This document shows, one piece after another, positions 11,634 through 14,602 of a stretch of DNA of 53,371 bases. Origin of the DNA: a virus (taxonomy: Duplodnaviria; Caudoviricetes); IMG/VR virus record IMGVR_UViG_3300020473_000702, positions 1 through 53,371 of that record; one strand, given 5' to 3'. The position numbers were made by a program, and so were the translations under genes. The stretch's first letter is position 1, and the number at the start of each line of letters is the position of its first letter. The notes below the pieces were generated by a model. The model saw only the letters and a list, made by a program, of their open reading frames with translations, made no database searches and was not told the DNA's origin.

Positions 11634-12202
11634 AAAAAGCTTGGATAGTTTTTGGTAGGTTTAATCCTCCTACTATAGGACATAAAAAAATGATAGACCA
11701 GCTTCAGAAACTTGCTGGTAATGATGATTATATGGTCTGGCCTACCTGGACAAATGATAAAAAGAAGAATCCTTTAAAACATCCAGATAAGGTTAACTGG
11801 ATGATTAAGATGTTTCCAGAACACTCTACTCATATACAGTCTGATAGATCTCTTAAGACTTTACCATTTATTTTACAGCATCTTATGGTGGAAGGTTATA
11901 GTGATGTGGTTATAGTATGTGGTAGTGATAGGACAAAAGCTTTTGATTTTAATATTAAGTATAACAGGGTAGAGACTGGAGATGGTCAAGCTTATTATGC
12001 TTTTGATACTATAAAAATTGATTCAACTGGGTTGAATAGAGATCCAGATTCTGATGGTGCTGAAGGTATGTCTGCATCTAAGATGAGGGATGCTGCTAAG
12101 AAAGTAGATACGGTTAATTTTTTAAAGGGTGTTGAAGGTTTACTAAATACAAGTGATGCTTTAACATTGATGGAAGATGTTCGGGAAGGACTTGGACTGT
12201 GA
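11630..12202 (+). CDS. HIGH-superfamily nucleotidyltransferase (cytidylyltransferase/NMNAT-like)
   Basis: FGRFNPPTIGH, GSDR, MSASKMR; ATG 11630 overlaps the previous stop. Confidence 0.85.
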   Translation: MKKAWIVFGRFNPPTIGHKKMIDQLQKLAGNDDYMVWPTWTNDKKKNPLKHPDKVNWMIKMFPEHSTHIQSDRSLKTLPFILQHLMVEGYSDVVIVCGSDRTKAFDFNIKYNRVETGDGQAYYAFDTIKIDSTGLNRDPDSDGAEGMSASKMRDAAKKVDTVNFLKGVEGLLNTSDALTLMEDVREGLGL

Positions 12203-12480
12203 AAACATTTAGAGACATTAAAAATCAAGCAGTAAGACAGAACTTCAGACAGAAGGAATGCTTCACTGAGGGACAGACTGTGATGAATGTTAACACTGGT
12301 ATCAAGGGGAAGATAATCCGCACTGGACCGAACTATGTTATTTGTGTTTCTGAAGCCCGAGAAATGTTTAGAGCTTGGGTCAGGGACATAAGAGAAGTCA
12401 ATGAAAGTATAAATAAACCAAGAAGAACAGCCTTTTTTACTCATGGACAAGCAAGCACCTACAACATCAGTGCAACATAA
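12199..12480 (+). CDS. Hypothetical protein (small beta-barrel/SH3-like)
   Basis: GTG start overlapping previous stop; G.IIRTGPNYVIC...FRAWV.D. Confidence 0.7.
   Translation: MKTFRDIKNQAVRQNFRQKECFTEGQTVMNVNTGIKGKIIRTGPNYVICVSEAREMFRAWVRDIREVNESINKPRRTAFFTHGQASTYNISAT
12408..12415 (+). promoter_or_regulatory. T4 late promoter
   Basis: Exact TATAAATA 27 nt upstream of ATG 12443. Confidence 0.7.
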
Positions 12481-13003
12481 TGATGATTATTCTAAAGCAC
12501 TAATCGAATCATATGCACAGTGGATGGATGGAGATACCTTCCAAGGAACTACCATCAAAGAGGAACCTGCTACTATTGAAACACCAATAGGTACTATACC
12601 TAAGCCTGATTTTGATAAGGAAACTATCCCTACTATTAAAGTGGTCAACACTGATGATGGTAGCACAAAGGATCCTAAGGCTAATGCTGGTGCACCTGAT
12701 AGCACAAAGATCAAGCAGTCACATGGTGCTGAGATAAAGAATAATGCTATTAGTGTTAAGAGAGAAGAGGTTGAAGTTGAGAAGAAGGCAACTAGAGAAG
12801 AATTAGAAGCTAAGTTAGAAGAGATTCTTACAGAACTTAGTGAAATGACTGAGACTACTTTCACTATAACTAAAGAGAGATGGGAGAAAGCAGCTGCAGA
12901 GAGAGAAGGCAAAGTAGTTGAAGAAGAAGCAGGATGTAGTACCAATGAGTCTAAGAAGCAAAAGACCATTGATAAAATAATGAGCTATTCTAGAAAAAAG
13001 TAG
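12443..13003 (+). CDS. Acidic, charged hypothetical protein (possible prohead-internal); probable -1 frameshift extension to 13149
   Basis: 186 aa, E/K/T-rich; ends AGA AAA AAG TAG. Confidence 0.75.
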   Translation: MDKQAPTTSVQHNDDYSKALIESYAQWMDGDTFQGTTIKEEPATIETPIGTIPKPDFDKETIPTIKVVNTDDGSTKDPKANAGAPDSTKIKQSHGAEIKNNAISVKREEVEVEKKATREELEAKLEEILTELSEMTETTFTITKERWEKAAAEREGKVVEEEAGCSTNESKKQKTIDKIMSYSRKK

Positions 13004-13046
13004 AAGGGCTTGCACATGATAGATGGGGTCTAGAAGAAGGCAAGTC
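12994..13046 (+). other. Putative programmed -1 ribosomal frameshift signal
   Basis: In-frame A_AAA_AAG 12994-13000; stem GGCTTGC (13007-13013)/GCAAGTC (13040-13046); -1 frame open 13000-13149. Confidence 0.65.
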
Positions 13047-13145
13047 AAAAGGAAAAAAGAAAAAGACTGTTGAGATCATGCCTCGTATTGACGATGGTAA
13101 AGATATGAAGAACCCAAAGAAAGGACCAGATATATACGTGAAGGG

Positions 13146-13152
13146 ATAAATA
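13146..13152 (+). promoter_or_regulatory. Late promoter-like motif
   Basis: ATAAATA upstream of the lipase gene. Confidence 0.5.
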
Positions 13153-13172
13153 ATACTAATTGAGTTTTTATT

Positions 13173-13766
13173 ATGACATTAGCAAAAGAGGCAATACTCG
13201 AAGCACTTAAGTGTTGTAGAGATGTGTATCCACATAAGCAAGACTTCCTAGTTAGTAGGAAGGTGGAAGGTCATACCATTCTTGCAGTTGAAGGAACAAA
13301 TGAGACTACAGACTGGATAACCAATCTGAAGTTTCTTATTAAACGTGACGATTGTCACAGAGGATTCAAGAACAATGCTAACAGGACACTAGCCGAGCTA
13401 GTGGTAGCATATGAAGGATTGGATCCTAAGAGAAAGCTTGTTATTGCAGGTCATTCTCTTGGTGGAGCAACCGCTACCTTAATTGCAGACTTGTTATGGG
13501 AGTCAGGCAATAAGAATGTAGCCCTAGTAACTGCTGGTTCTCCCAGACCAGGTGGACGTAGGTTAAGAAAGAGGATTAAAGATCTTGAACATCTTCGGTT
13601 TGTGCATGGTGATGACATTGTTCCAGGGACTCCTCCTTGGCTTGCTGGCTATGTACACACTCATCCAGTTATCAAACTAGAAGACGAGAAAGATACTCGT
13701 TTTGATGGAGTTGCTGACCATAATATAGGTGACTATTATGAAGCAGCTCTCAAATATTATAAATAA
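13173..13766 (+). CDS. Class 3 lipase (alpha/beta hydrolase)
   Basis: GT...DW.TNL lid, HRGF, GHSLGG nucleophile elbow, GSPR.G, DDIVP, DH. Confidence 0.88.
   Translation: MTLAKEAILEALKCCRDVYPHKQDFLVSRKVEGHTILAVEGTNETTDWITNLKFLIKRDDCHRGFKNNANRTLAELVVAYEGLDPKRKLVIAGHSLGGATATLIADLLWESGNKNVALVTAGSPRPGGRRLRKRIKDLEHLRFVHGDDIVPGTPPWLAGYVHTHPVIKLEDEKDTRFDGVADHNIGDYYEAALKYYK
13758..13765 (+). promoter_or_regulatory. T4 late promoter
   Basis: Exact TATAAATA upstream of ATG 13805. Confidence 0.7.
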
Positions 13767-13804: not shown

Positions 13805-14602
13805 ATGCCCATACTTGGATCTATAGACAGTGCTGATTTTACTGCCACCGTTGCAGTTACTAATGCTTCAGCAACTGTTACTAAAGGCAACGCAGATACT
13901 ATCGTTGCTGGAGATATTATAGTTCTGGACGGTGTTCAGTACTATACTAAGGTAGTCGATGGTAATACTATTACCCTCGGTAAAGCATATGCTGGTAGTA
14001 CCAATGCTACATTAGCAGCAAACAAGGTACAAAGACGTACTGCACCCAAGGCATTGGCTGATTTCCTATTGAGTAATGGAACTTCTACTGCATCTACAAC
14101 TAGTATTGTTGGTGTAAGTCAGGCAGAAGCACAACTCAGTGAGAACAAAGCACGTGGTATCTCTAGTCCTGGATGGTGGGCATATAGGACATATACAGAT
14201 GCTGCTGGTTCCACACGTCATAAGGCAGAATTGATTACATCATACAAAGATGGTACTGCATTCAGTGGAGACTTCACTGATGATACAATTGCTGCTGATA
14301 TTACTTCCTTGATTACAATTGATACCCAACCTGCTAACCAGAATACATCTGGTGGTGGAGCAACATTTACTGTCGCTGCATCTTCTACAGGTTCTGGAGC
14401 ATCTCTCACCTATCAGTGGCAACGACTTGATGTTACTGGTGGAGAATGGACAGATGTATCAGGTGCAACTTCTGCAAATCTCGCACTCACTGGTGAAACT
14501 GCTGATGAGACTGGAGATAAGTTCAGAGTTAAAGTCAACAACTCCATTGGTGGTGTTGAAGTAATCACTGATGGTGCTGCTACACTAACATTCGTTAGCT
14601 AA
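13805..14602 (+). CDS. Probable virion structural protein with C-terminal Ig-like domain
   Basis: PGWW.Y.TYTD..G.TRHKAEL; C-terminal ITIDTQP...ATFTV.A...YQWQ...FRVKV Ig pattern; late promoter. Confidence 0.75.
   Translation: MPILGSIDSADFTATVAVTNASATVTKGNADTIVAGDIIVLDGVQYYTKVVDGNTITLGKAYAGSTNATLAANKVQRRTAPKALADFLLSNGTSTASTTSIVGVSQAEAQLSENKARGISSPGWWAYRTYTDAAGSTRHKAELITSYKDGTAFSGDFTDDTIAADITSLITIDTQPANQNTSGGGATFTVAASSTGSGASLTYQWQRLDVTGGEWTDVSGATSANLALTGETADETGDKFRVKVNNSIGGVEVITDGAATLTFVS

Follow-up and report, generated by a model that had tools for sequence, protein, structure and literature searches.

The question raised by this locus is whether a gene of 186 amino acids (aa) in a T4-like cyanophage always ends at its stop codon, or whether programmed -1 ribosomal frameshifting carries part of its translation into an overlapping open reading frame (ORF). 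The gene lies in the IMG/VR virus record IMGVR_UViG_3300020473_000702, and the window analysed here is this entire record, 53,371 nucleotides (nt) with an estimated completeness of 28%. Judging from nucleotide and protein searches, the window is part of the genome of a T4-like cyanomyovirus (Kyanoviridae), with Marine virus AG-345-P14 as its closest overall match. The slippery heptamer A_AAA_AAG stands directly before the stop codon of the gene, and the -1 frame is open behind it. Given the evidence described below, we consider it very probable that a functional programmed -1 frameshift operates at the 3' end of this putatively late gene, with predicted forms of 186 aa and 235 aa; that ribosomes shift here, how often they do so and what the two isoforms are for is inferred from the sequence. 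Two types of junction were found among the homologues. Type A has the heptamer and an abutting stop, and type B has no heptamer and an ATG overlapping the stop (ATGA). The elements of the junction in the window are the following.

12443..13003, + strand: 0-frame gene, 186 aa plus TAG; PHROG 4359, homologous to S-PM2 p145 / Syn1_163
12994..13000, + strand: slippery heptamer A_AAA_AAG in the 0-frame phase X_XXY_YYZ; invariant in 77/77 unique type A genes
13001..13003, + strand: 0-frame stop TAG abutting the heptamer on its 3' side ('shifty stop' position); a stop is there in 77/77 unique type A genes
13007..13046, + strand: stem-loop 6 nt 3' of the heptamer, with arms GGCTTGC/GCAAGTC at 13007-13013/13040-13046 and an inner hairpin at 13020-13024/13028-13032
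13000..13149, + strand: -1 frame extension, 49 codons plus TAA; post-shift reading ...R-K-K-V-E-G-L-A-H-D-R-W...
13069..13098, + strand: conserved motif V-E-I-M-P-R-I-D-D-G within the extension, shared across both junction types

The anatomy of this junction had been described in an earlier note on the same DNA, and its description was reproduced. The 186-aa ORF ends in ...TCT AGA AAA AAG TAG with the heptamer in phase at 12994-13000. The -1 frame has a stop (TAG, 12991-12993) just before the heptamer and is then open to the TAA at 13147-13149, giving the 49 residues VEGLAHDRW...DIYVKG quoted in the note. No start codon is found near the 5' end of the extension, the first ATG, GTG or TTG of the -1 frame being the ATG at 13078. 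The minimum-energy fold (-13.1 kcal/mol, z -4.49) consists of the stem at 13007-13013/13040-13046 and the hairpin inside it; none of 200 dinucleotide shuffles folded equally well. The -1-frame stop just 5' of the heptamer is not a conserved feature, as relatives are open for 0-33 codons upstream in this frame.

A homopolymer error at the A run, which the note had wanted checked against reads, was assessed on assembled contigs from public runs, with interpretation confined, in X13, X17 and X14, to the covered stretches. Contig X13, from an RNA library, covers 12321-13073 with one mismatch and no gaps and has the same A6 run. The DNA contig X14 is identical to the window across 12985-13220. The strain contig X16 (about 93% identity) differs by indels of 1+1+1, 9 and 6 nt, none of them at the heptamer. 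With the A6 run reproduced free of indels in independent assemblies of DNA and of RNA libraries, a homopolymer or assembly error was ruled out.

Junctions were read at 108 loci. Besides the window, these comprise 17 named records of phages or single cells, 14 IMG/VR loci retrieved by a search with the window protein, and 76 additional IMG/VR loci. An alignment-based search had yielded 426 IMG/VR relatives, and the 76 come from the best 80 of these (of which 3 run off contigs and 14 repeat contigs that the protein search had already given). A further six loci were read beyond the 108. When only unique upstream genes are counted, the 108 junctions give 84, of which 77 belong to type A and 7 to type B, and type A is represented by 11 isolate or single-amplified-genome (SAG) species. 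The conservation of AAAAAAG-stop in homologues, another check proposed in the note, was found in all 77 unique genes of this junction type: neither the heptamer nor the initial T of the stop varies in any of them (100%), against a consensus frequency of 0.31-0.90 at the 30 positions on each side. The codon before AAA AAG is GAA in 36 of these genes, TCA in 16, AGA in 11, GCA in 11 and GGA in 3. It thus encodes five amino acids yet always ends in A, indicating a constraint at the nucleotide level, not at that of the amino acid. The abutting stop is TAA in 33 genes, TAG in 23 and TGA in 21, and the A run at the heptamer has a length of 6 in 41 genes and of 7 in 36, never more. Other Lys-Lys pairs in the same genes (n = 580) are spelled AAG-AAA (280), AAG-AAG (203), AAA-AAG (50) or AAA-AAA (47), and an in-frame A_AAA_AAG was present at none of these 580 internal pairs. 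Homologues encoding the full length in one frame, which would have indicated an indel or a sequencing error, were sought among 120 listed proteins of 102-326 aa (of 224 matches) and among the loci read at the DNA level, and there was none in either set.

The frame behind the heptamer has the properties of a coding sequence. In type A the -1 frame always continues from the heptamer into V-E-[VI]-M-P-x-[IVL]-[DNEK]-D-G, located 5-126 codons downstream, and the motif [VIL]E[VIL][MLI]P is present in the -1 ORF of 77/77 evaluable IMG/VR loci and of all isolates read, with both junction types included. Between junction and motif, the 73 unique extensions comprise 1,897 codons with 0 stops in the -1 frame, whereas the 0 and +1 frames hold 212 and 277, respectively. 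All gaps in the alignment of this region are multiples of three. Relative to the strain of X16, five of the six listed substitutions in the extension change the third base of a -1-frame codon, and the 6-nt indel lies inside the extension. By its shared motif, its indels of 3n only and the absence of stops, the -1 ORF is conserved as a protein. A start codon is often missing from it. ATG, GTG and TTG are all absent before the motif in 33 of the 73 unique extensions, a further 20 have only the GTG of GTGA, and the Met of the motif itself is not a conserved start because it is Leu in S-WAM2 and internal in type B proteins.

The module GLDGKACWKGY...NCVK is part of the upstream 0-frame protein in S-PM2, Syn1, S-RIM32 and S-CAM1. 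The same module directly follows the heptamer in the -1 frame of nine IMG/VR contigs, at the loci L017/L042/L043, L019/L020/L048-L051/L055 and L079/L082, and in these contigs the first possible start codon falls within or after the module. The GLDGKACWKGY module is also held by the -1 ORF of AG-345-P14 (L002) and of its relatives L078 and L095-L097, with a GTG three codons past the junction. Apparently, the module has moved across the junction as if this were the interior of one protein, and we regard this as the most telling evidence for continuation.

The sequence downstream of the stop is strongly folded in most type A genes. The mean minimum free energy of the 50 nt after the stop is -13.98 kcal/mol in type A flanks versus -7.58 kcal/mol for windows in the same gene, and 42 of 68 unique type A flanks are in the lowest 5% of their own gene. 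A helix of at least 5 pairs starting 4-9 nt past the heptamer was found in 54 of the 68. Conservation of the stem was likewise among the checks listed in the note, and it came out in favour, with stems that differ in sequence between lineages: GGGCTTGC/GCAAGTCT, AGTCTTG/CAAGACT, GGTCTTG/CAAGGCC, AGGCTTGCG/CGACAAGCCT, GGTGGGCAA/TTGCTCATC, GGAGCACCC/GGGTGCTCC, and one long form spanning the motif codons. Compensatory changes of the arms were seen by eye (GGTCTTG/CAAGACC, AGTCTTG/CAAGACT, AGGCTTG/CAAGCCT, GGCTTGC/GCAAGTC), since in the MAFFT alignment of the flanks the 5' arms align and the 3' arms, owing to different loop lengths, are in different columns. The arm GGCTTGC is kept in different codon phases, GGG CTT GCA in the window and GAG GCT TGC in S-CAM1, pointing to selection on the RNA. 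A search of 12300-13300 against Rfam gave no match. In addition to the hairpin, an AGGAG/GGAG core is located 8 or 11 nt 5' of the heptamer in 32 of the 68 type A flanks. As to the host, the complete genome of Prochlorococcus marinus MIT 9201, taken as a stand-in, has a single tRNA-Lys with anticodon UUU and none with CUU (38/38 tRNA matches read), and there are no tRNA genes within the window. Work on dnaX is said to have shown that a sole tRNA-Lys(UUU) makes A_AAA_AAG shift-prone in E. coli.

A second copy of A_AAA_AAG (GGA AAA AAG) is present at 13053-13059, inside the extension and in the phase of the -1 frame. A slip there would meet a stop within a few codons, ahead of the conserved motif. 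Close relatives have AAA AAG AAG AAG at this place, with a 6-nt deletion in one strain, and as it is not conserved this copy is probably incidental.

Type B provides a contrast group to these junctions. It was found in isolates of nine species (S-RSM4, S-WAM2, S-H9-1, S-MbCM7 (ACG-2014h), ACG-2014e, ACG-2014i, ACG-2014j, S-CAM4 and Sf-CH1b) and in three IMG/VR contigs (L137, L139 and L140). The upstream gene ends in AAG AAA AAA TGA, GGT AAG AAA TGA or GTG AAA TGA, with the ATGA overlap and without A_AAA_AAG. The downstream ORF has the same relative frame as in type A and the same motif, together with its own leader, MKTFKQ[LF]RE[ED]CGC or MKSYRQFLEY. No hairpin signal was obtained, 0 of 7 flanks being in the lowest 10% of their own gene. 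Heptamer, abutting stop and hairpin thus accompany precisely those downstream ORFs that have neither start nor leader, which matches the prediction of frameshifting. As judged from the sequences, neither a Lys-rich tail nor simple coupling accounts for this pattern. A tree built from 50 upstream proteins splits type B into two clades, each well supported and lying within type A, so that at least two switches between the types would be needed; this number is provisional, the tree being a quick IQ-TREE maximum-likelihood search with a midpoint root on mosaic proteins.

According to the mechanism we favour, most ribosomes would decode ...AGA AAA AAG and stop at the TAG at 13001-13003 to give the 186-aa protein, and a fraction would slip back one base on A_AAA_AAG. 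The slip may involve re-pairing of two Lys-tRNAs from AAA-AAG to AAA-AAA, or a move of the peptidyl-tRNA from AAG to AAA while the stop codon sits in the A site. Tandem slippage is favoured by the invariance of all seven bases, and the invariant abutting stop suggests that slow termination contributes (the 'shifty stop' effect). Shifted ribosomes would then read GTA GAA GGG... and add 49 residues with V-E-I-M-P-x-I-D-D-G, resulting in a transframe protein of 235 aa. Slippage would be aided by a sole host tRNA-Lys(UUU) as seen in the stand-in, which is weak on AAG, by the abutting stop, which is slow to decode, and by the hairpin 6 nt downstream; in other lineages the extra AGGAG/GGAG box 8 or 11 nt upstream may also assist. 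With heptamer and stop, -1 ORF and hairpin all conserved and a homopolymer error ruled out, the frameshift proposed in the earlier note has gained support.

The same junction could also be explained without any frameshift, if the downstream ORF were a separate small gene translated by termination-reinitiation or independent initiation and the A-rich end of the upstream gene merely encoded Lys-Lys. Translation would then start at the GTG of GTGA, at a nearby GTG or at the motif ATG (13078 in the window, leading to a 23-aa peptide). The phage records annotate the ORF in this way (S-PM2 p146, Syn1_164, S-RIM32 gp084 from motif M), type B relatives clearly start at the overlapping ATGA, GTGA is present in 21 of the 77 unique type A genes, and a GAG/GAGG just 5' of the motif ATG could serve as a ribosome-binding site. 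Nevertheless, we consider a separate gene improbable. The 33 of 73 extensions that are startless before the motif are free of stops over up to 126 codons, have indels of 3n and encode protein modules, and the motif M, being L in S-WAM2 and internal in type B, is not conserved as a start. A separate gene also leaves unexplained why A + AAA-AAG, a rarer spelling of Lys-Lys with 0/580 occurrences internally, is fixed in 77/77 genes, and why a hairpin follows 4-9 nt downstream in type A junctions only.

Slippage of RNA polymerase on the A6-A7 run, adding one A in some transcripts, would yield a fused protein identical to the frameshift product, and the homopolymer of 6 (41 genes) or 7 (36 genes) could in principle allow it. 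Known bacterial sites of transcriptional slippage use about 9 or more A/T, however, and here the run never exceeds 7 A. Neither the conserved terminal G nor the adjacent stop nor the downstream hairpin is needed by a polymerase, and RNA-library contigs keep A6 without an indel, a weak point since contigs drop rare variants. Overall, polymerase slippage appears very unlikely. The downstream ORF could finally be an unexpressed, decaying remnant or an assembly artefact, caused by an indel in a once continuous gene, an explanation that the single window alone could not have ruled out. It is hardly credible now, as isolates share the junction with metagenome contigs of many studies, DNA and RNA-library assemblies both contain it, no in-frame version exists among the 120 listed proteins or the loci read, and the -1 ORF is under coding constraint.

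Some observations weigh against the frameshift or narrow its basis, and they are considered together here. The sequence AAAAAAGTRR occurs once in the window and at least once in 56 of 100 shuffles, so heptamer and stop in a single sequence are not beyond chance, in contrast to the hairpin and the conservation. Kinship among the type A sequences shows in their 37 single-linkage protein clusters at 90%, 10 at 80% and 5 at 70% identity, and for this reason the 77 genes are not 77 independent events; the variation of the flanks around the heptamer nevertheless indicates ample time for synonymous change. The TGA stop in 21 of the 77 genes creates the overlapping GTG of GTGA, where re-initiation is possible, and many other type A loci have a GTG or ATG 3-8 codons past the junction. 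The listed homologue P0024 ends in ...GYSTK and may lack the heptamer, as far as a protein sequence can tell. A convincing downstream hairpin is missing in the subclade of S-PM2, Syn1 and S-RIM32 (own-gene percentiles 0.22-0.72), whose members have AAGGAGG shortly 5' of the heptamer, and the upstream AGGAG box is missing in the window. The tRNA-Lys count comes from one stand-in genome, which was reached via the NdhI-like gene of AG-345-P14 and possibly is not that of the phage's host. The case as a whole is built on sequence anatomy, conservation, the coding character of the -1 frame and this one tRNA set.

A frameshift at this junction would combine features of several known systems. In the E. 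coli dnaX gene, a -1 frameshift reportedly separates the tau and gamma products. The cyanophage site has the identical heptamer A_AAA_AAG, a hairpin likewise about 6 nt downstream, in many relatives (not in the window) an AGGAG/GGAG box 8-11 nt upstream, and in the stand-in host the sole tRNA-Lys(UUU). The gene is unrelated to dnaX, however, the dnaX shift shortens the product through an early -1 stop where the cyanophage shift would lengthen it, and in the cyanophages the 0-frame stop abuts the heptamer in every case. The capsid gene 10A/10B of phage T7 is also said to be frameshifted. As in T7, with its major short and minor long form, a late phage gene would be lengthened by tens of residues through a -1 shift near the stop, but the slippery sequence of T7 differs, its protein is unrelated and its site is not directly before the stop. 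Other -1 frameshift systems are orfA-orfB of the IS3 family (IS911, IS150) and the G/GT tail chaperone of phage lambda. With IS911 (A_AAA_AAG) and lambda G/GT (a related heptamer) the cyanophage junction shares the fusion of an upstream ORF to a -1 ORF without an efficient start of its own, and with both systems a mechanism kept across very divergent sequences; unlike them, the cyanophage genes are neither transposase nor tail chaperone. A stop directly 3' of a slippery run, the 'shifty stop', reportedly raises shifting in E. coli reporters. The stop follows the heptamer in the same way in 77/77 unique genes here, where it would be a natural and fixed feature of a family, whereas evidence for the effect comes mainly from reporters. 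For T4-like phages, a paper cited in PMC10885494 reports that no frameshifting is involved in making the tail chaperone forms. The cyanophage site would therefore place a frameshift elsewhere among the genes of these phages.

No joined or slippage coding sequence is annotated in 20 isolate or SAG phage records. The two ORFs are annotated there as separate hypothetical proteins (the upstream gene S-PM2 p145 / Syn1_163, then the small p146 / Syn1_164), except in records that pass over the downstream ORF or lack annotation altogether, and the annotated starts of the downstream ORF are inconsistent (GTG, ATG or an internal M). A description of the site was found neither by literature searches nor in the portions consulted of PMC2908710, PMC1079782, PMC3014915, PMC4810235, PMC10885494 and bioRxiv 10.1101/2025.10.02.679949, and an earlier report, or an entry in virion proteomics tables, is possible. 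Cyanophage, Synechococcus and Prochlorococcus are unmentioned in the main text of the PRFect paper, and a literature search on the S-PM2 locus tags returned no papers. T4-like cyanophages are among the most abundant ocean viruses and their genomes are much used for annotation transfer; a conserved recoding site would correct the annotations of the downstream ORF. It would also provide a clear frameshift that can be tested in culture, with S-PM2 or Syn1 on Synechococcus as the marine phage-host system, and give a natural, family-wide example of a stop fixed right after a slippery heptamer. Since the mechanism itself is classical, the gain would be a new instance and a handle on a late protein family, not a new principle.

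Attempts to assign a function to the proteins gave few clues. Pfam had no family for the window protein, and only the N-terminus of a type B relative matched, to DUF7201. The matches in PHROGs were to families of unknown function only, that of the upstream protein being PHROG 4359. In a profile search of the PDB the best E-value was 0.24, and the ESM Atlas had no usable match. An AlphaFold2 model from a 31-sequence alignment showed four short helices with low confidence (pLDDT 55, pTM 0.17). Short modules, basic or with Cys residues, make up the family as a mosaic, and they have been gained, lost and moved between both ORFs. Besides GLDGKACWKGY..NCVK these modules include a CxxCxGxGCxxC unit, GLYANIHAKRKRG.., KDIDNDGD.., a ..HNCAKKV..THYD.. 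unit, and a APPGKKYERMVKHIKK..AYATAWKH unit annotated as DUF6321 in Sf-CH11.

The leaders of type B proteins offer a further hint. The T4 internal proteins IPII and IPIII start with MKTYQEFIAE, and type B leaders share with them M-K-[TS]-[FY] and F/L at position 7, a likeness too short for statistics. It is limited to this 10-residue leader, with no detectable homology beyond, and the window extension is without a leader. The proteins studied here are, like IPII and IPIII, basic and (putatively) late. According to section 2.6 of PMC9026906, the first 10 residues of IPIII are a capsid targeting sequence (CTS) and are enough for incorporation into the head. The likeness is short and no proof, yet it suggests a head-internal role. 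In our reading, the frameshift would set a fixed low ratio of the tailed form of a basic, mostly unstructured and possibly head-associated late protein. A bolder explanation, which we hold to be doubtful though worth stating, is that the frameshift stands in for the capsid-targeting leader. The downstream polypeptide, basic and equipped with V-E-V-M-P-x-I-D-D-G and shuffled mini-modules, would then reach its destination by two interchangeable ways, in type B with its own T4-CTS-like leader (MKTFKQLREE / MKSYRQFLEY) and ATGA coupling, and in type A, the window included, where leader and start codon are both missing, by fusion of a fixed fraction to the upstream protein through the frameshift. 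If so, the locus could alternate in nature between a pair of coupled genes and a single recoded one; heptamer, abutting stop and hairpin would be gained or lost as a package, and the two solutions would have been swapped at least twice. The alternation of type A with ATGA-coupled type B would be a built-in evolutionary control for the purpose of the fusion.

The late status of the 186-aa gene depends on the following element upstream of it.

12408..12415, + strand: TATAAATA, T4-type late-promoter-like box, 28 nt 5' of the start codon; promoter role assigned by position only

It is from this box only that we infer late expression. The exact TATAAATA occurs in 4 copies in the window, which is no enrichment (at least 4 copies in 87 of 100 shuffles). 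A late promoter placed by the note at the end of the extension was not borne out: the sequence there is GATAAATA, and after 12408-12415 the next exact copy is at 13758-13765, about 40 nt 5' of a 265-aa gene (13805-14602) with homologues annotated 'head protein'. Two of the four exact copies in the window precede genes of the junction cluster.

The order of genes around the junction is DUF6267 protein, cytidylyltransferase-like protein, 93-aa protein, 186-aa gene, lipase and 265-aa protein. The same surroundings, minus the lipase, were found in S-PM2, Syn1, S-RIM32, S-CAM1 and others. The 93-aa ORF (12199-12480) overlaps the start of the 186-aa gene by 38 nt, and small homologous ORFs are present in L004-L006 and L021-L032. 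RefSeq phage records call its homologue 'ribonucleotide reductase alpha subunit' or 'NrdB'; no Pfam family was found for it, and as the ORF is much too short for a ribonucleotide reductase, the name looks like a propagated mis-annotation. The N-terminus of this family (MKTFRDIKNQ / MKDFKKLREE) recalls the T4 capsid-targeting leader.

The lipase gene at 13173-13766 belongs to class 3 (Pfam Lipase_3, E 4.7e-20) and has 78% DNA identity to the lipase of Prochlorococcus phage P-SSM2. It directly follows the frameshift cassette in the window and in AG-345-P14 (L002 3407-4000), and no lipase occupies this position in the other isolates read, S-PM2, Syn1 and S-CAM1 included. In P-SSM2 the lipase is present (L001 2979-3593) and the frameshift gene is absent. 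AG-345-P14 also carries (L002 4284-4826) a cyanobacterial NdhI-like ferredoxin-type gene with 78-84% protein identity to Prochlorococcus, Synechococcus and Cyanobium genomes.

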